This document shows, piece after piece, positions 553 through 20,695 of a stretch of DNA of 21,171 nucleotides (positions are counted from its first letter, which is position 1; the number at the start of each line of letters is the position of its first letter). Source of the DNA: an uncultured archaeon. GTDB lineage: Archaea > Hadarchaeota > Hadarchaeia > Hadarchaeales > Hadarchaeaceae. Made by a program: the position numbers and the translations under genes. The notes under the pieces were generated by a model. It did no database searches. It worked only from the letters and a program-made list of their open reading frames with translations, and was not told the DNA's origin. The stretch spans positions 1-21,171 of the forward strand of contig CAKZTQ010000031.1 in assembly GCA_937921735.1 (NCBI GenBank), given 5' to 3'.

Positions 553-957
553 ATGTTGGGAAGAAACGTGAAAAAAGGTTTGAAGGTGGGGATCATTTAC
601 GCGGCATTCTTCGTCGTAGTGTGGACTTTGGCTGCCAATCTTTCGCTGCCCCCCATTCCGATGCTCGGAGGCGGGGAGGCGGATGTGACCTCCCCAGGCG
701 TTACGGAGCTTGACTGGGTGCTTACGAGCGATACGCCGCCCAAAGTTAGCGGGGCAACGTTGAAGTTTGATGACGACTTGGCGAGCGGAACGACCATTTA
801 CCTCTCAGTTCTGAATGATGCGGGCACGGTGCTGGCCTCGGGATCTAAAACCCTTACATCAAAACTCCCTGAAGGCGACCCAGTGACCGTGAATCTCGAT
901 GACGAAGTTCCACCCGAACAGATCTATAAGGTTGCAGTGACCGTCGTAGGTTCGTAG
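553..957 (+). CDS. Secreted single-domain beta protein; candidate SipW-processed (TasA/AbpA-like) fibre subunit
   Basis: ORF 505-957. Likely start is ATG 553, after GAGGAG and TTTAAA at ~500. Basic plus hydrophobic signal ending WTLA, then ANLSLPPIPMLGGGEADVTSP. Aligns over its whole length with the N-terminal domain of the next gene. Confidence 0.6.
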   Translation: MLGRNVKKGLKVGIIYAAFFVVVWTLAANLSLPPIPMLGGGEADVTSPGVTELDWVLTSDTPPKVSGATLKFDDDLASGTTIYLSVLNDAGTVLASGSKTLTSKLPEGDPVTVNLDDEVPPEQIYKVAVTVVGS

Positions 958-994
958 AAGGCCGAATAAGCGAGTTTGCTGAGCGTGATGATTC

Positions 995-2431
995 TTGCGC
1001 GTAAAGAAACCCGCCGCCCCCCTTCTTTTTCTGCTCATGATGTTAGTTACTCTTGTAACCGCTGCACAGTTGCAGCTCCCCCCGATACCGATGCTCGGAG
1101 GCGGGGAGGTGGAGGTGTCCTCCCCCGCAGCCGTTGCGAGCATAAAATGGTTAACGCATTACTACGGCGGAATCCCGAAAGTTGACGGGGTCAACGTAAC
1201 TTTTTTAGGTCCCTTGGCGGGCGGTACCGAAATATATGCGGATCTTCTCGATAGTGCAGGCAGCAGCGTGGCATCCGGCTCAGCAATATTAACATCGGAA
1301 CTGCCAGCCGGGATTCCGGTCACTATATCGACAAGCCCGCCTGCCAACGCATCCGTAGTTTATAAGTTGAGGCTAACGGTCATCGCTCCTGCGCCTCAAA
1401 ATGCGAACGTGACGTTCAGCGCGACAGGGTTGGGCGCAGATGCTGATGGAATAGTTCTGACAGTCGATGGCGGAAGCTACGCCTATTCGAGCCTACCTAA
1501 GACGTTCACGTGGGCTGTTGGAAGCCAACACACCTTCTCGTGGACTGACCCGGTTACTGCGGGAAGTGCGGGGAAGCGTTACGTATGGGCCTCAACAAGC
1601 GGCCTTTCAACGCTTAAAAGCGGAACAATAGAGGTTCCCGCGGGCGGCGGGGCAGTGACCGCCAATTATGTGACCCAATATAGGCTTACGATAAGCGTTA
1701 GCCCAAGCGGCGCCGGCACAACAACTCCTGCGCCTGGCAACTATTGGCACAACCAGTCAACCTCAGTCCAGGTTTCAGCCACTCCAAACCAGGGATACAT
1801 CTTCAGCCATTGGCTACTTGATGGAAACTATGCGGGCTCCAGCAGCACGATAACGGTGCAGATGAACAGCGCCCATGAGTTAGTGGCCGTGTTCCTGCAA
1901 GTCGTTTCGCAGACAAGGTACTTCGGCTACCACAGCCATACGGTAAACGGCTTGAATGCGATTAGGCTCATAACGACCCCTGACGTCTCGTATTTACGTG
2001 AGGGCGACACATCAATAGTTGATCAGGCCATAACTATCAGCTGGGGGATACGGGTGTGGAAGCGCTCTTCCTCAGGAGTTGAAACTGAGATAACGTCCGG
2101 AACGCCGGTGGCGCTTGTTTCAAGGAACAGTAACGGACAGGGTATGCAGTCGGCGACGTGGAGCTGCCCAGAAGTTGACCTGAACCCGACGGACTCAATA
2201 GTTGTGCGAGTATACATGGATTTTGAGGGCTGGCGCCTCCTACAGATCTTCACAACCGAACAGCTCAACGCGGAGCAGCTTCGTCCTTCAACGTGGACGG
2301 TTTATTACTACACTTACTATAACCTGCGCTTACTCGGGGGAGAAGAAGGCGACCTGTACCTCACTGTCTTCTTCTACCACGGCAACTCGGCCTATCCCAG
2401 CCGCATTGAGGGTTTCACATGGGCAGGCTAG
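995..2431 (+). CDS. Secreted multidomain protein: paralogous fibre-subunit domain, surface repeat modules (including an InlB B-repeat-like unit) and a C-terminal aromatic-rich domain
   Basis: Signal peptide ending LVTA, then AQLQLPPIPMLGGGEVEVSSP. Modules VTFSATGLGADADGIVLTVDG..LPKTFTW and GTTTPAPGNYWH..ATPNQGYIFSHWLLDG. Ser/Thr-rich with many N-x-S/T sequons. Confidence 0.7.
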   Translation: MRVKKPAAPLLFLLMMLVTLVTAAQLQLPPIPMLGGGEVEVSSPAAVASIKWLTHYYGGIPKVDGVNVTFLGPLAGGTEIYADLLDSAGSSVASGSAILTSELPAGIPVTISTSPPANASVVYKLRLTVIAPAPQNANVTFSATGLGADADGIVLTVDGGSYAYSSLPKTFTWAVGSQHTFSWTDPVTAGSAGKRYVWASTSGLSTLKSGTIEVPAGGGAVTANYVTQYRLTISVSPSGAGTTTPAPGNYWHNQSTSVQVSATPNQGYIFSHWLLDGNYAGSSSTITVQMNSAHELVAVFLQVVSQTRYFGYHSHTVNGLNAIRLITTPDVSYLREGDTSIVDQAITISWGIRVWKRSSSGVETEITSGTPVALVSRNSNGQGMQSATWSCPEVDLNPTDSIVVRVYMDFEGWRLLQIFTTEQLNAEQLRPSTWTVYYYTYYNLRLLGGEEGDLYLTVFFYHGNSAYPSRIEGFTWAG

Positions 2432-2460
2432 GCGGGAACTGTAGGTTGCAGGTGTAGCCT

Positions 2461-2904
2461 ATGGGGAAAGTCAGCGTGATGCTGCAAGCCGCACTCCTCT
2501 CTTTCCTCCTAGCCTTCATTTTCCTGGAGTTTGCAGGCTTAGTCACCGTGGCGATAGTTGCGACGCCTTCCATGGAGCCTTTTTTGCCTAAGGGGTCGGC
2601 TGGCGTATTCGTTAAGGCAGGAAAATACGAGGTTGGCGACATCATCATCTTCAGGGTTCACGGTTGCCTTGTGGCCCACAGGGTTGCAGCTGAAACTAAA
2701 AATGGTTTCAGGACGAAGGGGGACCATAACGGCGTCTTGGATCCATGGGTTGTTACTGAAGACGCCATCCTTGGAAGGCTCGTCCTGTCCGTGCCGATGC
2801 TCGGCTACGCCATCTACATCTTACGCTCGCCATTGATCTTTGCCGCGGTCTCAACCGCCATCCTCATGATCTTCACATGGGACGCTTTCTGCGGCGAAGC
2901 GTGA
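2461..2904 (+). CDS. Signal peptidase I, S26B (SipW/Sec11-type)
   Basis: N-terminal TM, catalytic Ser in TPSMEP, GDIIIF, His in VAHRV, TKGDHN..DPW and a C-terminal TM. Confidence 0.9.
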   Translation: MGKVSVMLQAALLSFLLAFIFLEFAGLVTVAIVATPSMEPFLPKGSAGVFVKAGKYEVGDIIIFRVHGCLVAHRVAAETKNGFRTKGDHNGVLDPWVVTEDAILGRLVLSVPMLGYAIYILRSPLIFAAVSTAILMIFTWDAFCGEA

Positions 2905-3030
2905 CAACCTCCGGGGTTCAGATGCGCAATTCGAAGAAGAGGGCGACGATTCCGCAACCCTGGCAATATTGCTTTGAGTTTTCATGACTCCAATTTTAAC
3001 GTTCACTTCACTTCAAATTGTGGTGAAAAA

Positions 3031-4143
3031 TTGCACCGCTATGGGAAAGGAATGAGCGCCCTGCTGAGCACCGCAGTTCTCATCATAATATGCGTTTCGG
3101 GAGGGCTGCTCCTCTACACCATTTTGAGCGGCAGATTGCAGTGGGCGGATGAAGGGCTTTCAATAGAGTCCGCTGATCTGGTGAAGCAGACCGATGGATG
3201 CGTGACCTTCGCAATAATAATAAAGAATGTTGGCGGAAAAACTGTGAAAACGCTTATTTTGACGCTTGATGGGGAAGAACAAGTTTCAACCAATATCGTT
3301 TTGGAACCTCGCAAGTCCACGTCCCTCGTTCTGAGCAGCAGCCAACTCACCAAAGACTATGTTGTGGGAAACGTCTACACCGTGACAGTTGAAGCTATAT
3401 TCGTGGATGGGAGCGCGCGCTCGATTACGACATCTTTGAGATGTCGAGGCTGTGGCAGCTCAATTAGAAGGGAAACTGAGGAGGAGGGTGGAGGGGAGGC
3501 TGAGGGCGAGCAGATAGACTTCGCAATCTCCCTGTCCCCATCAGGGACCAAGCTTTTGCCAGGTGAAAGTAACTTCACAGTACTGAGGATTTCATTATTG
3601 AACGGGACATCCGCAGATGTAACGCTCTCAACATCAGGTCTCCCGCCAGGTGTATCTGTAGAGTTCAGCCAAAATCCATTAACAGTTTCCCAAGGTTCTC
3701 CTGCCTCGTGCATCATGAATGTGGCGACGGACGCTACTGCGCCGGTCGGTAACTATGCCGTTGAAGTCATTGGAACTGTGGGAACGCTGAGAAGAAAAGT
3801 GATATATACTCTCATCATAATCGAGGAAGGGGGCCTTCTACTATCGCTCAAGGACCAGGACTTCTGCTTCGGCTTCACGAACGGCTTGTCCGATCAATGG
3901 TTTGATGAAAAACAGGCGAAAACTTACATGTTTCAATTTAGCTACTACTTGGAGTATGAGGCAATGGGCTCACCGTCCGGCCCATCCCAGCAGAATAATG
4001 CAATAATCTACGTTTGGGGAGCCGACTTCATATTCGGATGGGGCGATGAGGTTTACGTCTACAGGTACTCCACGAGCGAGGCAATGAATCCGGAAAGCTC
4101 CAGCAACATATACGCGAACCTGCTTCCGCCGCCTGAAATTTGA
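3031..4143 (+). CDS. Type IV pilin-like protein (class III signal) fused to an Ig-like domain and a C-terminal extension
   Basis: ORF 2974-4143. Likely start is TTG 3031 after GGTGA. KG/MSALLSTAVLIIICVSGGLLLY class III leader. Pilin domain aligns with 16873-17322, followed by an acidic Gly/Glu linker and DFAISLSPS..GLPPGVSVEF..APVGNY. Confidence 0.75.
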   Translation: MHRYGKGMSALLSTAVLIIICVSGGLLLYTILSGRLQWADEGLSIESADLVKQTDGCVTFAIIIKNVGGKTVKTLILTLDGEEQVSTNIVLEPRKSTSLVLSSSQLTKDYVVGNVYTVTVEAIFVDGSARSITTSLRCRGCGSSIRRETEEEGGGEAEGEQIDFAISLSPSGTKLLPGESNFTVLRISLLNGTSADVTLSTSGLPPGVSVEFSQNPLTVSQGSPASCIMNVATDATAPVGNYAVEVIGTVGTLRRKVIYTLIIIEEGGLLLSLKDQDFCFGFTNGLSDQWFDEKQAKTYMFQFSYYLEYEAMGSPSGPSQQNNAIIYVWGADFIFGWGDEVYVYRYSTSEAMNPESSSNIYANLLPPPEI

Positions 4144-4197
4144 GGGGGAAGCCGTGACTCACACTTTAATATCCTTGTGCCAAAAAGGTTTGGTGAG

Positions 4198-5301
4198 ATG
4201 GGGAAAATGAAAACAACTAATGCAATAAGGTCGCTACTTGTGCTCCTAACGTGCATGTTGATGTTATCTCAGGTGTCTGTTGCCTTCAGTTCCAAGTCCA
4301 GCATCGCCCCGATATCTGACGAAGCGCTCCCAACCAGCATGGATTTGGAATTGACGCCTCCGCCGGACGAAGCTCTGATAGTTCCAACTCCAAAATGCGA
4401 GTCGCCCTCGCCTCACGCATCTCTGTTGCTGATAGCGGTCGCTTCAATAGCTATTTCCGCCACCATCCTCATCAGGAAGGCGAGGGCTAGGTGGATGATT
4501 CCCGTGGCCATGTTGGTGGTGGCGACCACTCTCTTAGCGTCCCCTCTGCCCGCTCATGCGGTTGACTTCGGCAACCCTCTGGACACCTCCAACATGATGC
4601 TCTTTGCCTATTATTACGACCAAAACGGGTGGGTGTTGGCTGACACCGTCACTGCCTTCGAGAACTACACGAATCATGGGAACTATTATGATGGGTGGGT
4701 GCGCGTATGGATGGATGTGAAGGACACCACCTTTATTGGCACCGAGTTTTACGTTGACGTTCGCGTGAGGGTGAGGAGCGATGGATGGATCCTTGCATGG
4801 TTGACGAGGGATCAGTCATACGCGTACATCGTGTTCTGGGGACGTAAAATCACTACGGCAGGACCGCCGGTAACCAGCGCAACCGTCCCCTCACGGGCAA
4901 TCCACAGGGTCTTCTACGCCTCCAAAAAGACGTTCCCGGGATATGGCGCCATAAAACTTTATGACTTCACGCACCCGACCGCGAGGAAATTGCTGATCTT
5001 CGGCAAGTCCATTTCTTCTGGCAGCGCTGCCAACGTTTACTTCTATTACACCATCCCGGCAGGCATTCAAGTAATGGATGCGACTACAAGCGTTTCTTAC
5101 TACGAATCTTCTTCCTCGTATTGGGGAAAAATAAACCTCGACGGTGCCACGGTCATCAACCTTGATGCGACAACCTACTGGCGCTCATTCGACTGGCCTC
5201 TATCCGCCTTCACTACTGAAGTGAAGCACACAATTCACTTGCAAGTATCCACAACGACCGGGAGCATCTACATTAATTTCGCGCTCATCCTTTGGCTGTG
5301 A
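4198..5301 (+). CDS. Hypothetical secreted/membrane protein with two signal-peptide-like segments
   Basis: ORF 4177-5301 with GGTGAG before ATG 4198. N-terminal signal, Pro-rich spacer, TM, RKARAR, second hydrophobic stretch ending PAHA, then a Trp/Tyr-rich domain. Confidence 0.65.
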   Translation: MGKMKTTNAIRSLLVLLTCMLMLSQVSVAFSSKSSIAPISDEALPTSMDLELTPPPDEALIVPTPKCESPSPHASLLLIAVASIAISATILIRKARARWMIPVAMLVVATTLLASPLPAHAVDFGNPLDTSNMMLFAYYYDQNGWVLADTVTAFENYTNHGNYYDGWVRVWMDVKDTTFIGTEFYVDVRVRVRSDGWILAWLTRDQSYAYIVFWGRKITTAGPPVTSATVPSRAIHRVFYASKKTFPGYGAIKLYDFTHPTARKLLIFGKSISSGSAANVYFYYTIPAGIQVMDATTSVSYYESSSSYWGKINLDGATVINLDATTYWRSFDWPLSAFTTEVKHTIHLQVSTTTGSIYINFALILWL

Positions 5302-5483: not shown

Positions 5484-6302
5484 GTGAAGCGCTTGGACGA
5501 AGTTTCGGCGGTAGTGGTCAGCTTGGACAGCCTTGAGCTCGGCGCCTTCACTCCGAGGCTGATGTTCGATGAGGGCTGGATTAAGGAGCTTGCGGAGGAC
5601 ATTTCGAGGAACGGGCAGCTCAAGCCCATAATCGTGAGGCCCCACCCCTCCAAGCCGGGGTTCTACCAGGTTATCGATGGGGAGCACAGGGTCAGGGCGC
5701 TTGGGCTGCTGGGCATGACGCAGGTGCGAGCTGAGATCCGCCAGCTCTCCGACGAGGAGGCTGTCTTTCTCGCCATGAGGGTGAACGAGCTCCACGGCAA
5801 GCGCCTGAGCGATCTTGAGGAGGGCTCACATATGCTGAAGCTAAACGTTGAGTTCGGCTGGACCCAAGAGAAGATCGCTGAGAAGCTCGGCAGGAGCCAA
5901 CAGTGGGTGAGCGACAGGATCAGGATAGCGAAAAACATGTCTGAAGATTTGAGATTTTACCACGCGCGTGGTAAAATCTCCCTAGCCCACGCGAGGGAAA
6001 TCGCTGAGCTCCCGAGGGAAGTTCAGCCCGAGATCGTCAAGAAGGTTGTTGAGGAAGGCCTGAGCTCGAGGGAGACGGCCCTGCTCACGCACGCGCTGAG
6101 GAGGGCTGAGGGCGAGGATGAGAGGAGGCGAGTCCTCCAAGCGCCAGTCAAGGCCCTGACCGAGGCCTACGAGGAGCCAGCAAGGGTAGTTGAAACAGTC
6201 CTTTCCAGGAAGGAGGAGATTATTGAGACCTTCACGTGCCCAGGCTGCGGGAGGAAAGCGACCGTTGACTGGGTTGAAAGGAAGCTCGTGTGGGGTGAGT
6301 GA
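5484..6302 (+). CDS. parB: ParB/RepB/Spo0J-family protein
   Basis: IKELAEDISRNGQLKPIIVRP..YQVIDGEHRVRA (ParB N-domain, GxxR), EN-like VNELH, HTH WTQEKIAEKLGRSQQWVSDRIR, GKISLAHAREI and a C-terminal CPGC. Confidence 0.9.
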   Translation: MKRLDEVSAVVVSLDSLELGAFTPRLMFDEGWIKELAEDISRNGQLKPIIVRPHPSKPGFYQVIDGEHRVRALGLLGMTQVRAEIRQLSDEEAVFLAMRVNELHGKRLSDLEEGSHMLKLNVEFGWTQEKIAEKLGRSQQWVSDRIRIAKNMSEDLRFYHARGKISLAHAREIAELPREVQPEIVKKVVEEGLSSRETALLTHALRRAEGEDERRRVLQAPVKALTEAYEEPARVVETVLSRKEEIIETFTCPGCGRKATVDWVERKLVWGE

Positions 6303-6790
6303 GCGTGGACGGCGGCAGAACCTTGGCCGAGCTTGAGAGGATAGACGGGGTGGTTGGGGAAGGGAAGCTTTCCAAGGAAGGCATGGCGAAGCTGCGGGAA
6401 ACGTTCGGCGCAAGGTTCACAGCCGCGCTGAGGCTCGTCAGGCGAGGATGCGTTAAAAAGTACGTTTTCAAGCCCAGCGGTCGGGTCCGGTGGATAGTTG
6501 TGGGCAACGAGAGGGAGTACCTTATATACGATAGGGCCCCGTACTGCCACTGCGACGACTTCTACCTCTCAGTAATGAATGGAAGCGCGAAAGCATGCAA
6601 ACACCTGATAGCTCAGAGGCTCGCCTCGCAATTGGGGTTGTACGAGGTCGAGGAGGAAAGTGACGAAAAATACGTCAGGCTCCTCGAAGAATGGAGAAAG
6701 GTTGATGCCCTGCCGAGAACGAAAGGACCCAATGTGGCTGGCGGGCGACGATCCCGGTGGAGTGGCGATGAAGTACACAGTCCATATTGA
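6299..6790 (+). CDS. SWIM zinc-finger protein
   Basis: YCHCDDFY..ACKHLIA matches CxC-xn-CxH; WIVVGNEREYLI is typical of small archaeal SWIM proteins. GTGA overlap with the parB stop. Confidence 0.85.
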   Translation: MSVDGGRTLAELERIDGVVGEGKLSKEGMAKLRETFGARFTAALRLVRRGCVKKYVFKPSGRVRWIVVGNEREYLIYDRAPYCHCDDFYLSVMNGSAKACKHLIAQRLASQLGLYEVEEESDEKYVRLLEEWRKVDALPRTKGPNVAGGRRSRWSGDEVHSPY

Positions 6791-7521: not shown

Positions 7522-7731
7522 TTATCTCCCTTTAATCTTTTTTAGACGTTCCCGCTCGATTTTCTCAATGCATGCTTCTCGGGCGAATGAGGATCGGCTT
7601 GGCCAGTGGCCGCACTTCTCAATGAGTTTATCGATTTCCTCAAGAACGGGCATGGGGATGGAGGCCGCTCCGAATTCAACTCGGGCTCTTTTTTCACGTT
7701 TCTCAGCATTTGGACCTCTCACGTTGCTCAT
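7522..7731 (-). CDS. Ribbon-helix-helix (CopG/MetJ-like) DNA-binding protein
   Basis: ORF 7522-7872, probable start ATG 7731 (uncertain). AASIPMPVLEEIDKLIEKCGHWPSRSSFAREACIEKIE fits the archaeal RHH pattern. Confidence 0.8.
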   Translation of the reverse strand: MSNVRGPNAEKREKRARVEFGAASIPMPVLEEIDKLIEKCGHWPSRSSFAREACIEKIERERLKKIKGR

Positions 7732-7868
7732 CTCGCTGCTCTCATGATGTATCATTCTGCCTCGCTTCGAAGGTGTGAACCGTGAAAGATGGGGCGGCAA
7801 CCGACGGGTCTCTGAGCCGCGAAGCATCGCCAGAAGCGAGAATCTCCCGGCTTCAGCCGTGGAGAGTG

Positions 7869-10325: not shown

Positions 10326-10390
10326 CGCCCTCGCTCTAAAAGCTTTTGCTTTCTCGCCCTTAAAAGCTGAGGGCATGGAGAGGCCGATGA

Positions 10391-13300: not shown

Positions 13301-14560
13301 CTGCTCAGTGAGCGGGTTACACGTGTCCTCAGCTGCGAAGTACCCTCCGCCGCTTGTCCTCGCCGTTTTCGAAACGATCCACGTGCCGCCCGTCCAGAGG
13401 TTCCTTTTCCTGAACTCCGCAACGACGTCGCTGTGGGCAACTGGCGCTCCGCTTGAATCGTAGAGGTAGCCTGTTGCCTGGCAAACCGTGCCCCTGAGGG
13501 GGTCAAACCACGTCGTCCACTTCAAGTCCTTGACAACGAGCTTGAGCTCCGCTTGAGCGGAGAGCGGGACCAGCTTAAGAGGGGACCGGGCCCTCGCCTC
13601 CAACACAAGCCCGGTTGAGGGGGAGGCGTTTTCACCCTCATCTTCGCATTTTTTGAAGACGGCCCCGACCCCGTGCGGGCGGTCCATGAAAACGGTTATG
13701 GGGTTGCACGGCCCCATGTCACGGCCGTCCAAAATCCAGTGGCTGAAAGTGTAGTTTGCGTCCGGTATGGCGAAGACCGAGACGTACGTCCCGGCGTCAT
13801 ACAGGTACATTCCGGGCGGGGGATCCGTCGTTCCGCCGGTTGAGGCGCCTACCCAAAGGGCGTATTGAATCCTGCGGAAGATGGGCTGGAGGGCGTAAGG
13901 CGCGTTCATGACCACGCCTATCGGGTTCGAGGATCCGGCGTGCTTCCCATTGAGGAGCCAGTAATCCAACTCGTAGTAGTCGTCGGGGATGGCGCTCACG
14001 GAGACGGATTCGCCCTTCGCATGCCAGTAGCTTCCGGGGGCGGGGCTGGTGGTGCCGTGCTCCGAGGGGAGTATGGTTAAGAGGAATTCGATCCGGTAGT
14101 GGGCGAAGACCTCGACGCCTCCGAACGTGACCGAGACCGAACCGCTTGCGCCGCCCTCAGCCGTCGCGTAGGCCTCAGCCCTGACTGAAAAGTCATATGT
14201 GCCCGGGTTTGCATCGGCCCTAACCTTGAAGAGCGCTTTGCCGGACGTCGATCCCCACCCCTCGTCCCTAAGCTTCTCGAAGGCTGACTGGTCGTAGACG
14301 GCTTGGACGCCGCTGAAGCTCAGGCCCTCAACCATGTAGACGCCGTAATTTATCCAGAGCTGATCGTTGGGGAAGAAGGAGCCGTCCGGGTTGACTGAGG
14401 GCCTGCCGAACCTGTCCATTCCAGGCCAGTAGTTGACCACAACATTGACTTTCCCGGAGTCTCCTGAAATCTCGATCCACGCCGGCGAGGCGACGTCGGC
14501 GAGGGCGGAAGCTAAGAGGACGAGCAGGAAGGCTGAGCCCGCTAGGCGCTTCCTCCACAT
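10391..14560 (-). CDS. Large (1389 aa) secreted, C-terminally membrane-anchored modular surface protein/adhesin
   Basis: Signal peptide MWRKRLAGSAFLLVLLASALA, two tandem InlB B-repeat-like units, an Ig-like unit, two GLDADADG-type modules and a C-terminal TM followed by KFLRESR. Confidence 0.8.
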   Translation of the reverse strand: MWRKRLAGSAFLLVLLASALADVASPAWIEISGDSGKVNVVVNYWPGMDRFGRPSVNPDGSFFPNDQLWINYGVYMVEGLSFSGVQAVYDQSAFEKLRDEGWGSTSGKALFKVRADANPGTYDFSVRAEAYATAEGGASGSVSVTFGGVEVFAHYRIEFLLTILPSEHGTTSPAPGSYWHAKGESVSVSAIPDDYYELDYWLLNGKHAGSSNPIGVVMNAPYALQPIFRRIQYALWVGASTGGTTDPPPGMYLYDAGTYVSVFAIPDANYTFSHWILDGRDMGPCNPITVFMDRPHGVGAVFKKCEDEGENASPSTGLVLEARARSPLKLVPLSAQAELKLVVKDLKWTTWFDPLRGTVCQATGYLYDSSGAPVAHSDVVAEFRKRNLWTGGTWIVSKTARTSGGGYFAAEDTCNPLTEQFLGVQAWAEKPGYIPSWSLSTFLDPHSASVGQGSGLLAGVRVCLSGRYTSVPVSLFAEGVPQGCEVSFKPPSGEADGLTPLQSVMTLSASQTAPTGNYTLIVKASSGQVTASAPLRLEVTEPVQVPSAVRFAAYGLDADADGVVLVLDGSQNIYVGRLPYTADWRTNTQHTYSWTAVLSAKVYGKRYVFEKAVVKTRYLSVATVSVEVAKYDPQFTAFAYTIPRSPGEGSYEKHFAVIVRYDGNGPEKDLGKRAVFEGWDWYGHASRIAVQQRLTGLTAIPGLSGTKPEEIAENLRAIMELFNLTRGVTFSAAGMDAETEGIVLKVDGEGLTVKDLPKTYSWPENATHTYKWTVRMPVYTQVGYGMAWDEWFSFEYALITPPQVELKGNVTLEEAQRLLMDFASKLPSPSGSVKATMVGSKVIGVYSHNKLLESVAREAGVSRNDALKFVNFQLPVFFSNESRYVKFIFDLDDRVAAEALGMGYNVSLTYRVTFTTDAFSPRTHAFSVNFTCPLEYYRKDVEVKAFRWDRAAESWSIDGTVRVEALLSPTFNTTEENWFRSYLEEQEIDEVMLEIASKDIYECHPQYFGGVGSASGTMNRTSAFLYNLNATAGRGTPYLGVYPHDGDALTENIENAYAWWDSPSCRVSADWGRKTAGLSSIMVDAEGVATACALLHLIKPADAPSGSLSFDIYLGEGCSGKVTVVLLSPSGIAAMNETVGIGSWRTVTLPAGGEIHAVGIYAELAEPAGRFWIDRLRFTNAWLWRWKDAVSIAKTVYVDFASSEPLTIYANLDPSSPLPVNVTSDGPKTSRLTVEAAPELGGLAKITAYAVASAPHGYMLKDIPVEGLQLRRLFSLNLTVPEEWIEDGRFSGYRGYSSIRGGVLGFSGRMELLVAKDPEMKALPGYDDALLLIEAENVWGTRFHAIVAVQPWGKTFWEVMFEQVAMALIGVAAAAIIVGLIIKFLRESR

Positions 14561-14668: not shown

Positions 14669-15253
14669 GTGGACGTGAGCGGTTTAACGCCCATCATCAA
14701 GGGCGGCGTGCGGATCCTGAGGCCGTGCGAGTACGAACTGCTCAGGAAGGGCGCCAAAAAGCTTGAGAACCAGGTGAGGCTGGACGCCCTCCTCCTGACG
14801 GGTTTAAGGTACGTCGAGGCCCGGAGGCTCCATGAGCATCCAGAGTGGTTCGATGGGAGGTTCATACACCTCCCCGAGTATGCGCAGAGGAAGGCGAAGC
14901 GCAGGCAGCGCGAAAGGTGGGTCAGGCTCAACCCTCAGGGGCAGCAGATCCTCCCCTTCTTCTTCAAGGGTTCGCCGCCGCCATCGTGGAAGGCCTGGAC
15001 TGAGGCGCTGAGAAGGTGGGCCCTTCGGGCCGGACTTGACCCGGCGGGGCTTGGGCCGAAGACAACTCGGAAGACTTGGGAGAGCTGGCTCGTGACGTGC
15101 TACCCTGAACGCTTGACGGAGATATTCCTGAGCCAAGGTCACACGGAGCTCACAAGCCTGAAACATTACCTGAACCTGCCGTTCACGGAAGTGGACAGGC
15201 TGGAGATGGAGAGGTGGGTCATGGGCTGGGCTCCGTCGAAAACTTCCAGTTGA
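14669..15253 (+). CDS. Minimal tyrosine recombinase/integrase (catalytic domain only)
   Basis: LLLTGLRYVEA (Arg I), KTTRKTW (KxxR in place of HxxR), SQGH and LKHY (His and nucleophile Tyr). GAGGAGG RBS, with GCTTTTAAG upstream. Confidence 0.85.
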   Translation: MDVSGLTPIIKGGVRILRPCEYELLRKGAKKLENQVRLDALLLTGLRYVEARRLHEHPEWFDGRFIHLPEYAQRKAKRRQRERWVRLNPQGQQILPFFFKGSPPPSWKAWTEALRRWALRAGLDPAGLGPKTTRKTWESWLVTCYPERLTEIFLSQGHTELTSLKHYLNLPFTEVDRLEMERWVMGWAPSKTSS

Positions 15254-15317: not shown

Positions 15318-15482
15318 CAGGAGCTTGCGGGGGCCTTCGGGCTCAGCGGCCCCAAGGGTTCCGGGCTAAGCATTGATGCGTGTGGAGTCAATATTTAAAC
15401 TCATCCATTTTGAAGCATCGAATTTAAATCTTTAGGAAACGAATTTACGGTGAAGGGAATCGATTATGAGGGAGGGGTGGAA

Positions 15483-15701
15483 ATGGCGGGAACGATTGAA
15501 AAGGGTCTTGGAAAAATTGGCGTGACGGTTTCTAAGCCGGTTTTAGCCGTCCTATGCATAATCTTCGGCATCCTGGTGATAATTGTACCGGCGCTTCTGG
15601 AGATAATAGTCGGCATATTTTTCATAATAGAGGGGGTTCTGCTGCTAACTGAACATGCGGAGTTGCGGAAACAGCGGGAGGCGCCGCCTTCCCAACGCTG
15701 A
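15483..15701 (+). CDS. Small two-TM membrane protein (DUF3096-like)
   Basis: GGAGGGGTGG before ATG 15483; LAVLCIIFGILVIIVPALLEIIVGIFFIIEGVLLL hairpin. Confidence 0.7.
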   Translation: MAGTIEKGLGKIGVTVSKPVLAVLCIIFGILVIIVPALLEIIVGIFFIIEGVLLLTEHAELRKQREAPPSQR

Positions 15702-15718
15702 CGCTCGGGGGTGAAAGC

Positions 15719-16279
15719 GTGCCTGAACCATTCGCGCTGTATGTGAGCAAGAGGTTTCTTGATAAGGCTTCTAAAACTTTCGGTTTGGGGTTCATTGTCA
15801 GGAAACCCTTAACGGAAATGCTTAGGAAAATGGACGTCCCTTTCAAGGAGCTTGGGAGGGATGAGGCTAAAACAGCTCTCGACAGACTCGCCGAATCCAA
15901 AGGGGTGACAATTTCGGTCAGTCAGCTTATAAAGGGTTTGGCGCTCGCGTTTTTCCTGCCCACAAGCATTTTTATTGCAACTTTGAAAAAGGTTTTTTAC
16001 AGGTCTGGGGCTGAAACCGAAGATAGCATGATCCTGGAGTTCCTCGCAGAGATACCGAGAATGTTTAGGCCAACGCTTTTCTACGACATATGGCTGATCG
16101 TGCCTAAAACCGAGGCGGGAGAGACCAACGCGAAGCAGCTGATCAAAACGATAGTGGAAAAAACCGGAGTGCCGCCGTTAACAGGGGAGGAATGGGAGGA
16201 CCTTCAACCCATAGTGGAAAAACTGAGGGGGAAACTGGAGATAAAAGGCATAACGGAAAACCTGTGGAAATCGATATAG
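15719..16279 (+). CDS. Hypothetical protein
   Basis: 186-aa ORF with GGGGTGA RBS and protein-like composition; no recognised motif. Confidence 0.75.
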   Translation: MPEPFALYVSKRFLDKASKTFGLGFIVRKPLTEMLRKMDVPFKELGRDEAKTALDRLAESKGVTISVSQLIKGLALAFFLPTSIFIATLKKVFYRSGAETEDSMILEFLAEIPRMFRPTLFYDIWLIVPKTEAGETNAKQLIKTIVEKTGVPPLTGEEWEDLQPIVEKLRGKLEIKGITENLWKSI

Positions 16280-16287
16280 CCAACTAG

Positions 16288-16315
16288 GCGGGGGTTTGAG
16301 GCGCCAAGCCCCCGC
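16288..16315. terminator. GC-rich hairpin between convergent genes
   Basis: GCGGGGGTTTG (16288-16298) pairs with CAAGCCCCCGC (16305-16315) with one G-U pair and a 6-nt loop. Confidence 0.55.
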
Positions 16316-16323
16316 TCGCAGTT

Positions 16324-16758
16324 TTATCCGGTGCAGGGCGCGACCATCGACTTGTGGAGGGCGCTGCCATCGCTTGCCCTCGCCCTTATCTCAACGGGGT
16401 AGGTCTTGCCGACCGTCACGGAGAAGCCGGAGGGATCCATTACGGAAGCGCTTTTCGACTGGCCCACATCTATGGGGCCAAGCTGCAGCGTTGCGCTGCC
16501 CGAGTCGCCGTAGACCGTCACATTACAGGATGTTATGGGCTTGTTCCCGGAGTTCTTTATTGTGGCGGAGACCAGGATGGTGGATGAAGTCCTGATGATG
16601 TCGACCGAGATAACATGTATGCTGAGCTGGGATGAGGCCGTCCCGGCAGCGTTGAAGAAGAGGCTATATATGACGAGCCCGGCCGCAATCGTTATGGCCA
16701 TCAGCATTACCGTTGCGAGGAGGGGGCTTACGGCTCTTCTGAGCGGTTCGCTACGCAT
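16324..16758 (-). CDS. Archaeal type IV pilin (class III signal peptide)
   Basis: RRA/VSPLLATVMLMAITIAAGLVIY leader; IKNSGNKPI; VTVGKTYPVEIRA..DGS. Confidence 0.9.
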   Translation of the reverse strand: MRSEPLRRAVSPLLATVMLMAITIAAGLVIYSLFFNAAGTASSQLSIHVISVDIIRTSSTILVSATIKNSGNKPITSCNVTVYGDSGSATLQLGPIDVGQSKSASVMDPSGFSVTVGKTYPVEIRARASDGSALHKSMVAPCTG

Positions 16759-16807
16759 TTTTCAAGTTCACCAGAAGCAGTGCACGTGGAAACTTTAAAG
16801 CGGCTTA

Positions 16808-16837
16808 ATCGGAAAAAAGAATGATCGGAAAAAAGAA
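16808..16837 (-). repeat. Direct repeat ATCGGAAAAAAGAA x2 (16-bp period); T-rich on the minus strand, likely the pilin terminator
   Basis: Copies at 16808-16821 and 16824-16837, downstream of the pilin stop at 16873. Confidence 0.75.
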
Positions 16838-16872
16838 AAAAGGGGTTTTGTTGAGGGATTTAACCCGTCAGC

Positions 16873-17322
16873 TTAGCCGGATCTGCACATCACCGACTCA
16901 GTCTTGACGAAGGTGCTGCCGTCGGAGAATTTGGCTTCAATCACGATGTTGTAGGTGTTGCCGACAACGAAGGTTCCGCTCGGACTGTAGGTCAATGATG
17001 CGGACTGGGCTGGCTGAAGCGGGTTGGAGTCAGAGACGTTCTCGCCGGCAACCTTGAGGTTTTGAGCGGCTCCGCCTGCGAGCTTAACGGTCAATGATAC
17101 GGCCGGCTTGTTCCCGGTGTTCTTGGCGGTTATGGAGAAAGTCACGGTGCCCCCTGTATCTTTCACCAAGTCTACGGCCTCGAGGGATATCTGCCCCTTC
17201 GTAGCCATTATGCTGAAATAGTTCGTGAACGCGCTGTAAACCAGTAGTCCGCCTACGACACATATGGCCACCAGAATTATTGTCGCTATTAATGGGCTTA
17301 CGGCTTTTCTTTTCGCCATCAT
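16873..17322 (-). CDS. Archaeal type IV pilin (class III signal peptide), probable major pilin
   Basis: ORF 16873-17388, likely start ATG 17322 or 17319. KRKA/VSPLIATIILVAICVVGGLLVY leader. It has its own TATA-like ACTTTAAAGT (17355-17364) and T-rich terminator. Confidence 0.9.
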   Translation of the reverse strand: MMAKRKAVSPLIATIILVAICVVGGLLVYSAFTNYFSIMATKGQISLEAVDLVKDTGGTVTFSITAKNTGNKPAVSLTVKLAGGAAQNLKVAGENVSDSNPLQPAQSASLTYSPSGTFVVGNTYNIVIEAKFSDGSTFVKTESVMCRSG

Positions 17323-17364
17323 AGGTTTTTCCCCGATGTGGATGAGGCGTGAGAACTTTAAAGT

Positions 17365-17396
17365 GCGGTTATTGGACTTTGCGGTCATCGGACTTT
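17365..17396. promoter_or_regulatory. Tandem 16-bp imperfect repeat in a divergent promoter (candidate operator)
   Basis: GCGGTTATTGGACTTT / GCGGTCATCGGACTTT (14/16 identical), abutting the palindrome ACTTTAAAGT. Confidence 0.5.
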
Positions 17397-17435
17397 AATG
17401 TTTCCGCCCCTTCAACGTTTCAGGAAGTGACGGCT

Positions 17436-17606
17436 TTGACCGAGAGATGCCCTAAATGCGGGACGGAAGTGCGCGTGCCCATTAGGGCGTGGACGATGGC
17501 GCCCAAGAAGGGGGGAGGGGCGCTGCTCCGCATAACCTTGTATGAGTGCCCGAGATGTCTCCACCGCTGGAGGGAAGTCGCCAAGCTGGTTCCCGTCGCT
17601 AGGTAG
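17436..17606 (+). CDS. Cren7-like small chromatin protein with zinc-ribbon cysteines
   Basis: CPKCG..PIRAWTMAPKKG..ITLYECPRC..WR resembles the Cren7 pattern P-x-K-x-W-x-L-A-P-K..I-G-L-F-x-x-P..F-R, with two CxxC motifs. Start TTG 17436 or GTG 17427. Confidence 0.65.
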   Translation: MTERCPKCGTEVRVPIRAWTMAPKKGGGALLRITLYECPRCLHRWREVAKLVPVAR

Positions 17607-17621
17607 ATCGGTGGGGTTGCT

Positions 17622-18404
17622 TTGGGGAATTTCGTCTCGCCCGAGGTCTGCGGGTACTTTTTCGCCCTATCGGTTTTGGCCTACGCGTCCTACTGCGACT
17701 TCAGAACTCGCGAGGTCTCAGACATCGTTTGGGTCGCCGGATGCCCCGTTGGTCTGGCCTTAAGCCTGCTCAACATCTTCTCGGGGAACCTTGATGCTGC
17801 CGCCCTGGCGTTTTCCTCGGCAGCCTCAGCCTGCGTAGGGCTCGCCCTGTTCAAGCTCGGCCTTGCTGGAGGGGCGGACGCCCTCGCCCTCCTCTTCACA
17901 GGCCTGACCGTCCCAGCGTATCCCGAAGGCCTGCCGCTTTCCGCCGACCCTTTGGGCTTCCCGTTCTTCGCCGTTTTCTGCAACGCCGTCCTCCTGAGCT
18001 TGGCCTGCCCAGCCTCGGTGTTCGTTTCAAACGTTGCGGACTTGGCGAGGGGGAGGAATCCCTTCAGAGGCGTTGAGGTGAGGGGCGTCGGGGACCTCCT
18101 CGCCCTGCTGCTCACGGCTAGGCGCGTCAGCCTTGAGAGGCTTCTGGAGGGCCTACACTACTTTCCAGCCGAAAAGCTTGAGGATGAGGGCGGCAGGCCC
18201 ATAAGGGTGCCATTATGCTTTGCGAGGGCTAAGGCGGACCTCTCAGAGGTGACCGCGAGGATGGTTGAGAACAGGCAGCTCTACAGCGACGGGGTCCTCG
18301 CATCGCCGACCATCCCCATGATAGCGTTCCTCGCCCTCGGTTTGGCCCTCCTCCCCATGGGGAACCTTGTCTTCATCCTCATCCAGTCGCTATGGAGTTT
18401 GTGA
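17622..18404 (+). CDS. Prepilin/prearchaellin peptidase (A24, PibD/FlaK-like)
   Basis: ASYCDFRTREVSD (first Asp), GGADA (GxGD-type second Asp), multiple TMs and C-terminal PTIPMIAFLALG. Confidence 0.9.
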   Translation: MGNFVSPEVCGYFFALSVLAYASYCDFRTREVSDIVWVAGCPVGLALSLLNIFSGNLDAAALAFSSAASACVGLALFKLGLAGGADALALLFTGLTVPAYPEGLPLSADPLGFPFFAVFCNAVLLSLACPASVFVSNVADLARGRNPFRGVEVRGVGDLLALLLTARRVSLERLLEGLHYFPAEKLEDEGGRPIRVPLCFARAKADLSEVTARMVENRQLYSDGVLASPTIPMIAFLALGLALLPMGNLVFILIQSLWSL

Positions 18405-18459
18405 GGTTGAACGCGCACTTTAAGGTGCACGGGAGTAAGAAGGTGTGGTGAAGGAAGTG

Positions 18460-18816
18460 ATGGGCTCGCGTCTCGGAAGGATTTTGAGGGCGCTTAGATC
18501 CGCGGGGAACTCGGCAGCGCACGCATTCGCGGCTCTGCAGCTGGCGCTCATGAGGAGGAGCAGGGAGGAGGAGGTCGCCGTAGGCTACAACATGATAGCC
18601 ACGTGCCTCATGGCCGGGGCCATCATGGCTGTTGCGAAGCCGATTGCCAACTGGCTGACTGGAAATATGCTCGATAATCCTCCAGTGCCGGAATTGGGAA
18701 CGATGGTGAACAGAATCTTCGACCTCGTCATGTACTTGGGCGTGGTCATACTGGTGGTGGGCCTAATCATGGCTGGCATAAACCTTGTCAGGCGCCCGAA
18801 AATCCGCAAGAAGTAG
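18460..18816 (+). CDS. Small two-TM protein, possible VirB2/CedA1-like conjugative pilin
   Basis: ORF 18445-18816. Basic leader, two hydrophobic helices separated by NPPVPELG, and a basic C-terminus. Own promoter GCACTTTAAGGTGC (18415-18428). The function is inferred from size, topology and context. Confidence 0.4.
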   Translation: MGSRLGRILRALRSAGNSAAHAFAALQLALMRRSREEEVAVGYNMIATCLMAGAIMAVAKPIANWLTGNMLDNPPVPELGTMVNRIFDLVMYLGVVILVVGLIMAGINLVRRPKIRKK

Positions 18817-19372
18817 GGTCGGACTCTGCGCCGCCTTCCCGATCGTGCTCGTCTGGGTAGGCTTAGGCCCCTATTTCCTCCTCTGCGCAGCTTCCTCGTC
18901 GCCGGCCTCAGCCTACGCCTATTTCTCCATATGGGCTGCCGGCGTGCTCTCCGACTTCTACACCACGTACCGCTTTTACAGGTCCGATCCCGGAGGCTTC
19001 GAGAGGAACGAGCTCAGCGGCTACATGAGGAAGCTTTACAGGGCATTCGGCTTCAAAGCCGGGCTCGCGGCGTTTCTGGCCTTGGTGGAGGCGCCGGTGG
19101 GCCTGATAGTGTCCTTCGCGCTCGTGCCAGCCTCGGCAAGGGTTTTCGGATTGCCTCAGCTCGCTCAGCCCGAGTCGCTCGCCTACCTTTCGTCGGGCTT
19201 CGCCTTTCTAGGCCTAGGCCACCTCGCAGCTGCGGCCTGGAACCTCATGTTGGAGATGGAACCTCTTCCGTCAGTTGCTCCCCGACCGAAGTCGGAGGCC
19301 TTTGATGGTGGCGGCGATGTGAAAGCTGAACAGCCTCATGGACTGCGCCCGCTGAGCTGGAAGCGCGGCTAA
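18785..19372 (+). CDS. Membrane protein (DUF5658-like D-x-x-T-T...E-x-N motif); start uncertain
   Basis: SDFYTTYRF..FERNE plus about four hydrophobic segments. Confidence 0.55.
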   Translation: MSGARKSARSRVGLCAAFPIVLVWVGLGPYFLLCAASSSPASAYAYFSIWAAGVLSDFYTTYRFYRSDPGGFERNELSGYMRKLYRAFGFKAGLAAFLALVEAPVGLIVSFALVPASARVFGLPQLAQPESLAYLSSGFAFLGLGHLAAAAWNLMLEMEPLPSVAPRPKSEAFDGGGDVKAEQPHGLRPLSWKRG

Positions 19373-19436
19373 AGCCGGGCGACTCCATGAACCCGCCTTT
19401 TAAGTTTCAGGGCTTTAACGCTTCCGAGGAGGAAAG

Positions 19437-19970
19437 TTGAGGAGACTTATCGCCGGCGGCAAGTTGCCAGGAGGAAAAGTCGAGGGGGGCGAACCTTCCG
19501 AGGGTTCCGCGAGTTCCGAGGGGGTCTTATGGAGCGGGAAGCCTACCGTGCTTGCCTTCTACGATGCGCTTGCGGGAGGGGCGCTGCTCATAATAGTTTC
19601 GGCTCTGATCTTTGCGCTGCTGCCATTTGTCGCTCCGCTGTCGGCGATAGGCGTTGCATGCGGTCTCTTGCTGATGGCCTTCGCATTCATAAAGGCTTGG
19701 GCGAACACCTACACGGTCACGGACAGCCATGTTAGGAGGCAGTACCGCTTCGTCGCGGTGAGGGTTGAGGAGGCAGCCTTCGACAGGATCACCAACACGG
19801 TTTTGGAACAGGACGTTATAGGCAGGATCCTTGGCTTCGGGGACATAAGGTTTGACACGGCTGGGACGCCCTTCATGGGCGTGCTCTTTAAGGGCGTCAG
19901 GAACCCGGGCGGGGTTAAGAGGCTTATAGACGAAAAGATGGAAAGGATGGGCGGCGCCCCCACTCGCTGA
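19437..19970 (+). CDS. Membrane protein with bacterial PH domain (bPH_2, YdbS/YdbT-like)
   Basis: VLWSGKP, two TMs, then YTVTDSHV..FDRITN..EQDVIGRILGFGDIRFDTAG..FKGVRNP. Confidence 0.85.
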   Translation: MRRLIAGGKLPGGKVEGGEPSEGSASSEGVLWSGKPTVLAFYDALAGGALLIIVSALIFALLPFVAPLSAIGVACGLLLMAFAFIKAWANTYTVTDSHVRRQYRFVAVRVEEAAFDRITNTVLEQDVIGRILGFGDIRFDTAGTPFMGVLFKGVRNPGGVKRLIDEKMERMGGAPTR

Positions 19971-20020
19971 ACTTCAACCTGCGCTGCCGAACTTTAACTT
20001 GCACATGCGCCCATCTTCCG

Positions 20021-20695
20021 ATGGGAGCAAAAACTGCGGCAGCGTTGACGGCGATCGCGGCCGTATTGCTGACCCTCGCTCTCCTCCTCGCAAACCCATC
20101 GCCGCCCCCAGCGTACGTCGATTTTGAGGACGCGAGCTGGGGTGGCGCGTACGTCGAGCGGATTGGCGGGGCGTGGAGGCTTGCAGTCCCCCTGCGTGGG
20201 CAGGAGGCTCGCGCCATTCTCAGAAGCCGGCAGGAGTTTCTAGGGGGCTACTTTGAGGTTGAAATGAAGACCGTGGACGGCGGCGTCGGCTGCAGCGCCT
20301 TCTTCCTCTACGGCGAATATGGAGGGGGCGACTTCGACGAGATTGACGTAGAAGTATATGGGTTCATGGAGAGCTGCGAAGACATTTACGCCAACCTGAA
20401 CCCTGGGATGGCGGACTTCACTTGCTGGGTCGGCGGGCGGAGACATTTGATTAGGACGGGGCTCGGGTTCATGGCCAACGAGGCATTCCATAGATACGCG
20501 ATAAAATGGGTTCCAGGCGAGGCCGTCGAATTCTACGTTGACGGGGTCAAGGTGGGCGCCTTCTACGGAGAGAGGGTTCCGGAAAGGCCCATGAGGCTCT
20601 ACATGCAGACCATGTATGCGGATTGGATGTCCGGGTTCGGCGCGCATGAGGGGGAGGCCGCCACCCTTTTCAGAAACCTAAAGGTGCGCACGTAG
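20021..20695 (+). CDS. Secreted or membrane-tethered glycoside hydrolase family 16
   Basis: N-terminal hydrophobic signal, GYFEVEMK, SAFFLY, catalytic DEIDVE (ExDxE), FHRYAIKW.P..VEFYVDG and P..PMRL. Confidence 0.85.
   Translation: MGAKTAAALTAIAAVLLTLALLLANPSPPPAYVDFEDASWGGAYVERIGGAWRLAVPLRGQEARAILRSRQEFLGGYFEVEMKTVDGGVGCSAFFLYGEYGGGDFDEIDVEVYGFMESCEDIYANLNPGMADFTCWVGGRRHLIRTGLGFMANEAFHRYAIKWVPGEAVEFYVDGVKVGAFYGERVPERPMRLYMQTMYADWMSGFGAHEGEAATLFRNLKVRT

Follow-up and report, generated by a model that had tools for sequence, protein, structure and literature searches.

Three gene sets sharing an adhesin module on a putative fragment of an archaeal conjugative element

Contig CAKZTQ010000031.1 (hereafter C31) is a 21,171-bp stretch of DNA that constitutes the entire window analysed here and therefore has no flanks of its own. 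It was binned in a metagenome-assembled genome (MAG) of 1.06 Mb, comprising 60 contigs and 83% complete, from a small archaeal phylum with 66 species genomes. The contig encodes three gene sets: two secreted subunits followed by a signal peptidase (system a), type IV pilins with a prepilin peptidase (system b), and a VirB6-like channel protein, a small pilin candidate and a giant surface adhesin resembling parts of a type IV secretion system (T4SS; system c). All genes named in an earlier note, made from the sequence alone, appear at or near their proposed positions in the open reading frame (ORF) listing. Families were assigned by Pfam and NCBIfam scans, and hydrophobic segments, signals and anchors by a hydropathy scan. 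Judged by its gene content, C31 is probably part of an archaeal conjugative element.

The channel gene of system c lies on the reverse strand (7869..10547) and encodes an 892-aa polytopic membrane protein of the VirB6/TrbL type, with six hydrophobic segments in residues 105-470 (a polytopic domain was taken to have at least five helices) and a soluble, Pro/Ser/Thr-rich C-terminal half. Translation probably begins at Met58 (10376), which gives 835 aa as in the homologs. Of these, 23 were found with 47-68% identity, labelled by their sources as Jordarchaeales, Thermofilum and Nitrososphaerota. The protein itself matched no Pfam family, PF04610 (TrbL/VirB6) at E<=1 included, and neither single-sequence nor family-profile searches of the Protein Data Bank (PDB) returned a VirB6; two of 20 family members do match PF04610 (best E 6.5e-5), and one homolog carries a precomputed PF04610 annotation. 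The assignment was strengthened by modeling. An AF2 model of residues 90-480, based on 23 sequences (pLDDT 74.2), shows long helices, and its top PDB rows in Foldseek are TrwI/VirB6 chains of plasmid R388 (7o3v_J/G/F, 8rt9_F and 8rtd_L; probability 0.97-1.0), with TM-scores by target of 0.38-0.47 and rhodopsin rows below these at 0.15-0.21. Two independent structural searches both ranked TrwI/VirB6 first, with 211-263 positions aligned to a chain of 260-272 residues. The scores for this predicted structure are modest but specific and concordant. Sequence identity to the R388 proteins (7o3v, 8rt9, 8rtd) is 10-13%, and the C31 protein differs from them in having an extra soluble C-terminal half of about 400 residues and in its setting, a monoderm archaeal envelope. 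Among 72,556 plasmids, tblastn found no match to the channel domain. The family has an invariant Gly-x-Asp-Ala-Ala-Ile motif at the first helix; its possible use as an A24 peptidase cleavage site was considered and dropped, as an A24 gene occurs in only one of the 25 related loci described below. A 65-bp direct repeat (98%; 7999-8063 and 8116-8180) encodes a repeated Pro/Ser/Thr-rich linker in the C-terminal half.

The candidate for the corresponding VirB2/TrbC-like T4SS pilin is a 123-aa protein encoded on the forward strand (18445..18816), with a leader and two hydrophobic helices (residues 44-62 and 94-112). In its family the leader is conserved and helix 1 is preceded by an invariant charged motif, and 11 of 14 members match PF18895 (T4SS_pilin) at E<=0.01, with a best value of 3.3e-6. 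Single-sequence and family-profile PDB searches did not return CedA1, TedC or VirB2, and the solved CedA1 or TedC chains showed no sequence match to the protein. The third component, a giant adhesin of 1389 aa (10391..14560, reverse strand), has a signal peptide, repeated adhesin modules, InlB B-repeats and a C-terminal anchor (Flg_new_2, 7e-13).

Relatives of system c were collected by scanning metagenomes with the VirB6-like family alignment, which gave 25 loci; their ORFs were clustered with those of the MAG, and flanks of 10 kb were included. The VirB6-like gene is present in 25/25 loci; the adhesin occurs in 17, each time directly upstream of the VirB6-like gene and with 38-56% identity, and the integrase-like gene in eight. 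The gene order is conserved: recombinase-like gene, small gene, adhesin, VirB6-like gene, and then the families c2, c3, c7 and c15. Family c2 (~380 aa) was found in 12 loci, c3 in eight, c7 in five, and c15, a DUF87/HerA-like ATPase, in three. Homologs of c2 and c15 are encoded on contig C23 of the MAG and one of c7 on contig C36, and no c3 homolog was found in the MAG. The c3 proteins (~540 aa; L018, L020-L022, L024 and L025; e.g., L022 12612-14243) are multi-pass membrane proteins with a weak retropepsin-like match (gag-asp_proteas, E 0.0012). When six-frame ORFs from the entire MAG and the 25 loci were scanned with a profile of the 123-aa pilin family, only the C31 gene was retrieved; the other row was weak (E 0.016) and lay inside a VirB6-like ORF.

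Conjugation-type ATPases were looked for beyond C31, and an ATPase pair was found on contig C28 of the MAG, unlinked to C31 in the assembly. A 627-aa protein matches the VirB4 C-terminal domain (4ag5, E 3.3e-17) and TrwK (5e-4), and a 1046-aa protein resembles coupling proteins (TrwB_AAD_bind, 1.5e-10). In the related loci, DUF87/TrwB ATPases lie beside the VirB6-like homologs of L019, L032 and L034, and the L034 type IV coupling protein (T4CP), next to its VirB6-like gene, is 42% identical to the C28 protein. The proposal that C31 encodes a VirB6-like protein, a two-helix pilin-like protein and an anchored adhesin thus agrees with these results, the channel through its TrwI/VirB6 fold and the pilin, through PF18895 matches within its family, as a candidate.

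System b includes two plain class III pilins on the reverse strand. The 144-aa protein (16324..16758) scores 25 bits and the 171-aa protein (16873..17388) 29.5 bits with TIGR02537, the archaellin/type IV pilin N-terminal domain, for which the cut-off is 20; UpsA E-values are 4e-11 and 2.4e-15, respectively, and the 144-aa pilin also matches CARDB (8e-6). They are 37% identical to each other. A 389-aa protein on the forward strand (2974..4143), in which a pilin is fused to cargo, counts as class III by its 40% identity to the 171-aa pilin (UpsA model E 7e-7). All three are UpsA-like and not UpsA, judged from their sequences: they score 29.5, 43.1 and 56.9 bits with NF046073, against a cut-off of 130 bits. 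The A24 prepilin peptidase (17622..18404, forward strand) is above the cut-off of Peptidase_A24 (PF01478; 30.3 bits, cut-off 26.5) and matches FlaK (E 1.6e-10). It is predicted to process these pilins. The set of three class III pilins and an A24 peptidase put forward in the earlier note is therefore real.

Further pilus genes lie on neighbouring contigs. The 3' end of C31 overlaps contig C36 by 141 bp, and C36 encodes two more class III pilin-like proteins, one of them a 447-aa fusion. Contig C34, which is reached from C31 via C36 at an assembly fork with C9 as the alternative branch, encodes the candidates found for the pilus motor, namely a T2SSE ATPase (1e-28) and a T2SSF platform protein (2e-13), together with a coiled-coil protein and a 1008-aa pilin-BNR fusion. 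This ATPase and platform probably belong to the C31 pilus. Since the C34 ATPase (PilB) is only 25-34% identical to the ATPases of related genomes, the pilus set also looks accessory. The C31 A24 peptidase had no match in five related genomes; an A24 peptidase of a different lineage is present in 20 of 25, and a homolog with 48% identity adjoins the VirB6-like gene in L033. The fork itself is three-way: C34 and reversed C9 both run into C36, and C36 runs into the C31 3' end. It may reflect an element present in two variants or one containing a repeat.

The three systems are connected by more than adjacency, because their cargo domains are homologous. Residues 105-291 of the 478-aa cargo-fused subunit of system a are 44% identical to the 447-aa pilin fusion on C36 (E 9e-39), and this subunit also aligns with four segments of the 1389-aa adhesin at 41-50% identity. 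In the 389-aa pilin, the cargo (residues 183-296) has 37% identity with that of the C36 pilin and 29% with the adhesin, and the pilin domain of the C34 pilin-BNR fusion is 31-45% identical to the window pilins. The design that systems a and b had been said to share, i.e., a plain subunit, a cargo-fused paralog and a peptidase, is thus present, and the bond is tighter still in that cargo of common descent occurs in all three systems. From the sequences, this suggests that the three scaffolds share a binding target.

System a occupies the start of a tight co-directional cluster of five genes (505-5301, forward strand) that also includes the 389-aa pilin and a 374-aa protein. The first gene (505..957) encodes a plain secreted subunit of 150 aa, or 134 aa if translation starts at 553, as is likely. 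It has a signal peptide, a conserved N-terminal extension of ~20 aa and a predicted six-strand sandwich of the immunoglobulin-like (Ig-like) type. The second gene (995..2431) encodes the 478-aa paralog, in which an adhesin-type module, an InlB B-repeat and a C-terminal domain follow (Flg_new_2, E 4e-11). Both have an N-terminal hydrophobic signal, and they are 42% identical over 121 residues (residues 10-130; E 1e-18). The signal peptidase I gene (2461..2904) starts 29 bp after the subunit genes; its product is of the S26B (archaeal/SipW) type, with 62.9 bits for TIGR02228 (cut-off 51.85), E 4.4e-9 for SipW, and SMEP and HRV motifs in the translation. The predicted succession of two paralogous secreted subunits and an S26B peptidase was thereby confirmed.

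We also examined what the subunits are. Neither the 150-aa nor the 478-aa protein matched a Pfam or NCBIfam model for the subunit region at E<=0.01, a single-sequence PDB search with the 150-aa protein gave nothing, and the Atlas returned unnamed clusters only. Close homologs are few (two others). An exhaustive profile search gave 88 representative clusters, mostly of 130-145 aa, some labelled Thermofilum/Thermofilaceae by their sources, and the family is absent from all 65 other genomes of the phylum. Its most conserved stretch follows the signal peptide and is modelled at low confidence ahead of the sandwich, which measures ~85 residues. The operon points to an unstudied family of small secreted proteins.

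The earlier note had assigned these subunits to the TasA/AbpA class, which would make system a a donor-strand fibre whose cargo subunit resembles TapA/AbpB and whose peptidase is a dedicated SipW. The layout does resemble tapA-sipW-tasA of B. subtilis and the AbpA/AbpB genes of the archaeal bundling pili (ABP) of Pyrobaculum, with a plain subunit, a larger accessory paralog and an S26B peptidase (available parts of PMC9245690), and the conserved low-confidence stretch lies before the six-strand sandwich as a donor strand could. However, TasA, camelysin and SipW-cognate models match neither the window proteins nor any of 42 aligned family members at E<=0.1. The predicted structure looks like an Ig-like sandwich rather than the jelly roll of TasA and AbpA, and TasA, AbpA and CanA are absent from the Foldseek and VIA-align rows for the subunit model as well as from a PDB profile search with the family. 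The TasA/AbpA assignment is not supported by the family and fold comparisons, and we consider a fibre of this class very unlikely. A dedicated peptidase here would be unusual, because archaeal ABP loci are reported, in the same parts of PMC9245690, without one. The layout remains compatible with a strand-donating fibre, so that filaments might form. Tentatively, and with clearly less than even odds, the subunits could represent a new class of archaeal surface fibre or stalk, unrelated to TasA, assembled via the N-terminal extension and carried by a conjugative element as a third scaffold for the adhesin module shared with the type IV pilin and the T4SS-linked anchored adhesin. If true, system a would join a modular mating-contact system in which one specificity is displayed on three supports.

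The subunits are the presumed substrates of the signal peptidase. By analogy with TraF (RP4), TrhF (R27) or the cleavage of TedC, it might instead, or additionally, mature the T4SS pilin candidate. TraF and TrhF are signal-peptidase homologs that process conjugative pilins (available text of PMC12037004), signal peptidase I appears to cut TedC (as excerpted from PMC9905601), and the 123-aa family has a conserved leader of ~35-45 residues ahead of its invariant motif. The gene positions argue against this, with the peptidase gene 29 bp from the subunit genes and 15.5 kb from the pilin-candidate gene; the leader also has no clear conserved Ala-x-Ala site, and the peptidase gene is found in none of the 25 VirB6-like loci. 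We find this role rather doubtful. Signal peptidase I is present in 25/25 related genomes, with 28-35% identity to the C31 enzyme (28% within the genus). The signal peptidase I and the A24 peptidase on C31 are the sole copies detected in the 83%-complete MAG: either the host copies were left unassembled or the cell depends on those of the element.

The surroundings of the three systems indicate mobile DNA. The ParB partition protein (5484..6302, forward strand) is a strong match to HTH_ParB (PF17762, 8e-16), ParB_N (PF02195, 3e-15) and TIGR00180 (104.6 bits, cut-off 58.45), and its 163-aa partner (6299..6790, forward strand) has a SWIM-like Cys/His motif visible by eye and no Pfam match. Both recur together in L025 and L033 (68-76% and 60-62% identity, respectively). 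A perfect 30-bp palindrome at 5951-5980, inside the parB coding region, is a candidate parS/centromere. An Orc1/Cdc6-like AAA+ protein is represented by a 90-aa N-terminal fragment (1..270, reverse strand; TIGR02928 E 4e-8, weak AAA_16/AAA_22), truncated by the contig end. The short tyrosine-recombinase-like protein of 194 aa (14669..15253, forward strand), transcribed divergently from the adhesin gene, was recognised from box motifs by eye; no PDB match was obtained. Homologs with 79-85% identity are present in eight of the 25 loci (L018, L020-L022 and L025-L028). The neighbouring adhesin and VirB6-like proteins are only 45-68% identical across loci, so that the recombinase-like gene stands out as unusually well conserved.

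Other neighbours of the VirB6-like genes in the related loci are TFIIB (seven loci), PAPS reductase, MCM and Orc1-like genes. No TFIIB gene was found in the window, beside ParB or otherwise. Accessory genes of C31 recur sparsely: the A24 peptidase in one locus (L033), the bPH protein in two (L033 and L035, where it adjoins the adhesin), and the 195-aa membrane protein in one (L036, near the VirB6-like gene). The three modules were not found together in any of the 25 loci within the 10-kb flanks, which is also the outcome of the co-occurrence check on the gene set. The subunit homolog P0027 and the T4SS-pilin homolog P0120 both have 8149 as longest contig, and P0131 and P0119 both have 4860; this is a hint that other contigs may also carry systems a and c together. 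Searches for related loci in species genomes and in viral contigs found none, and the VirB6-like gene is absent from all 40 related genomes, from the same genus to the same order. Since the region is absent or divergent in relatives (VirB6-like gene 0/40, A24 peptidase 0/5, signal peptidase 28-35% identity), it has the profile of a mobile element. The modules also adjoin TFIIB, MCM, Orc1, ParB and conjugation ATPases, so that the mobile context noted before is upheld; of the proposed cdc6/ParB/integrase replicon, ParB is strong, whereas Orc1/Cdc6 is seen only as the 90-aa end fragment and the integrase weakly.

We consider it reasonably probable (about 0.6) that C31 is a fragment of an archaeal integrative-conjugative element (ICE) or conjugative plasmid that combines a T4SS-like module, a type IV pilus and a peptidase-linked subunit operon. 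Its core would be the VirB6/TedA-like channel, the VirB2-like pilin candidate and the giant anchored adhesin, powered by the VirB4-like and coupling-protein-like ATPases encoded on another contig of the MAG. Maintenance would rely on ParB with its SWIM-like partner, Orc1/Cdc6 and the short tyrosine recombinase. Two accessory systems would be added: a type IV pilus of plain pilins and pilin-adhesin fusions, served by an A24 peptidase of its own, and two Ig-like secreted subunits, one plain and one cargo-fused, with a signal peptidase I of their own. One binding specificity on three supports would make and hold the contact between donor and recipient, comparable to Ups pili in Ced transfer or to the thin pilus of IncI plasmids, after which DNA would pass through the T4SS-like channel. 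We infer the conjugative function and the direction of transfer from this gene set.

Several observations weigh against such an element. C31 itself carries no VirB4, T4CP or relaxase gene and is not circular, and C28 and C23 are tied to it by the bin only, with no end overlaps. Neither a tRNA gene nor an attachment site was seen, and the integrase call is weak: the 194-aa protein has no Pfam match, and its 84%-identical homolog matches Phage_integrase only at E 0.008. The 123-aa protein falls below the PF18895 cut-off (20.6 vs 26.6 bits), a search of the 10 kb around each of the 25 VirB6-like loci found no member of its family, and hhalign of this family with the VirB6-like N-terminus gave a probability of 3.7%; the likeness between pilin and channel N-terminus reported for CedA/CedA1 is thus lacking in the C31 families. 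The subunit, signal peptidase and pilin genes are found in 0/25 related loci. As sole copies in the MAG, the two peptidases could serve the whole cell. Finally, the first 4 kb have a read depth of 15x vs 18-19x for the rest, to which they are joined via a repeated node.

Some of these points would also fit a chromosomal island, either a domesticated system for DNA exchange and aggregation (a Ted/Ced-like channel with Ups-like pili) or the remnant of an immobilised ICE, which would serve cellular DNA exchange and biofilm formation and not the spread of the element. Ced, of Sulfolobales and Aeropyrum, and Ted, of Thermoproteales, are chromosomal T4SS derivatives with a VirB6-like channel, a two-helix pilin of VirB2 type and a VirB4-like ATPase that work with aggregation pili of the Ups or bundling type (PMC9905601, in the parts available), and an immobilised ICE without integrase has been described in Nitrosocaldus (PMC5797428, likewise). 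The lack of a visible relaxase, att site or tRNA and the single peptidase copies would be expected. In contrast to Ced and Ted, which import cellular DNA, the C31 set sits with integrase, ParB and Orc1 genes and is absent from relatives, those of the same genus included. The source labels of its homologs span Jordarchaeales, Thermofilum, Nitrososphaerota and Brockarchaeota, and the integrase-like gene, conserved at 79-85% across loci, together with ParB and Orc1 points to a mobile replicon. A domesticated island is possible, though much less probable than a mobile conjugative element. To our knowledge, all that is known of the mechanism of archaeal conjugation comes from plasmids of Sulfolobales and from Ced and Ted, both domesticated.

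To examine if the contig is sound, independently built Logan contigs of the one public DNA run that contains the C31 stretch, possibly the source run itself, were tiled on the window; no RNA runs holding the stretch are listed among the public runs. Depth is 15x over 143-3993 and 18.4-19.1x over 4092-7568, 8151-15769 and 16084-20000. The Logan contigs are interrupted at short nodes of 31-48x with loose ends (1-170, 3964-4121, ~7528-7872 and ~15984-16056). The Logan contig covering bases 1-170 has 47.6x vs ~19x elsewhere, so these bases are a repeat common to other DNA. The 158-bp node 3964-4121, at the 3' end of the pilin-fusion gene, has 36x, and position 4121 is joined back to 3964 through 22 inserted letters; a tandem duplication has probably collapsed there in the contig, and this joint accounts for the double depth. 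Node 7528-7872 has about double depth (41.8x) and at least four distinct loose ends, which suggests that several related elements in the sample carry the small gene 7522-7872.

These data bear on the concern that C31 is mis-binned or chimeric, in which case the three systems would come from more than one replicon or from another host. Only binning links the contig to the MAG, its homologs are labelled with other phyla, and both the breaks at the 31-48x nodes and the lower depth of the first segment would fit a chimera. However, depth is uniform from 4092 to 20000, and the one doubled node before it is explained by the tandem-duplication joint. The GC fraction of C31 (0.564) is inside the MAG range, and homologous adhesin modules lie on both sides of each node. 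Chimerism over 4-20 kb is unlikely, with the first 4 kb somewhat less secure, and we regard mis-binning or chimerism as an improbable explanation overall.

Among known mobile elements, a conjugative element such as C31 is closest to archaeal ICEs. Described examples encode VirB4, VirD4, VirB6, VirB2-like, CopG, sialidase, Cdc6, PIN, integrase, TFIIB, ParB, TadC and FlaI proteins, a prepilin peptidase and pilins (PMC5797428 and PMC6563490, as far as their text is available). C31 resembles the ICEs of thermophilic Nitrososphaeria/Thaumarchaeota (Ca. Nitrosocaldus ICE-1/ICE-2; the class of Krupovic et al. 2019) in VirB6-/VirB2-like, Cdc6-like, integrase-like, ParB and CopG-/PIN-like genes. They would also share a VirB4/VirD4-like pair (here on C28, unlinked to C31), TadC, a FlaI-type ATPase, prepilin peptidase, pilins and a BNR/sialidase-like gene (here on C34). 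TFIIB is shared with the related loci only, C31 itself being without TFIIB, att or tRNA border. The idea that the combination was undescribed fails, given that ICEs of Thaumarchaeota already in print combine VirB4/VirD4/VirB6 with TadC, FlaI, a prepilin peptidase, pilins and ParB (same two sources): a T4SS with a type IV pilus on a ParB/integrase replicon is known. Compared with the Nitrosocaldus-type ICEs in these accounts, C31 has an extra signal peptidase I operon with Ig-like subunits and an adhesin of 1300-1390 aa fixed upstream of the VirB6-like gene.

A second parallel is found in the IncI plasmids R64 and TP114, which also combine a T4SS with a type IV thin pilus and in which adhesin domains on the minor pilins set mating specificity (PMC9045228, parts available). 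IncI plasmids are bacterial and diderm, whereas C31 carries the same adhesin module on three scaffolds. Another difference may lie in how specificity varies. In IncI plasmids, the PilV adhesin is varied by a shufflon.

What is new on C31 is operon a, the adhesin gene fixed next to the channel gene, and the adhesin module common to three scaffolds; no report of these was found in the available parts of the literature, archaeal ICE supplementary annotation tables lying outside this search. C31 and the 25 related loci define a conserved module (integrase, adhesin, VirB6-like protein, c2 and HerA-like ATPase) with homologs labelled by their sources as belonging to several distant archaeal lineages, and this module is a concrete candidate for a still-mobile relative of Ted and Ced. 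The adhesin-channel pairing and the recurrence of a single module in a pilin, a secreted subunit and the adhesin suggest how such elements recognise recipients.

The remaining genes of C31 are less easily connected to transfer. The last gene of the cluster of system a (4177..5301, forward strand) encodes a 374-aa protein with three hydrophobic segments, without a Pfam/NCBIfam match or a usable match in an Atlas search. A 219-aa ORF at 6660-7319 has an internal Met followed by an N-terminal motif that looks PIN-like by eye, with no Pfam match; PIN nucleases are reported for Nitrosocaldus ICE-1 (PMC5797428, parts available). The small gene downstream of the VirB6-like gene (7522..7872, reverse strand) encodes a 116-aa protein that appears ribbon-helix-helix/CopG-like by eye only and has no Pfam match. 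An 83-aa protein with one hydrophobic segment and a weak DUF3096 match and a 186-aa protein (together 15450..16279, forward strand) are absent from the 25 related loci. Downstream of the T4SS pilin candidate lie genes for the 195-aa membrane protein and a 177-aa bPH_2 membrane protein (18785..19970, forward strand; bPH_2 5.7e-10), followed by a secreted glycoside hydrolase of family 16 (GH16; 20021..20695, forward strand; Glyco_hydro_16 8e-16) with a signal segment. Judged from its sequence, the latter could be cargo or act in cell-envelope remodelling; its gene is not in any of the 25 related loci. Element borders lie outside C31, and no tRNA genes were found in the window, C36, C9 (1-20000) or C34.

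At the 3' contig end, a gene on the reverse strand (20864..21157) encodes a 97-aa small membrane protein, and the last 141 bp of the contig form the overlap with C36. On the two branches beyond it, C9 consists mostly of ORFs without a family match, besides genes for MoxR/VWA and RNase H-like/SWIM proteins and one homologous to the element gene c26, and the far end of C34 carries a TnpB/Cas12f-like fragment (15-464; Cas12f1-like_TNB, E 4.7e-18).

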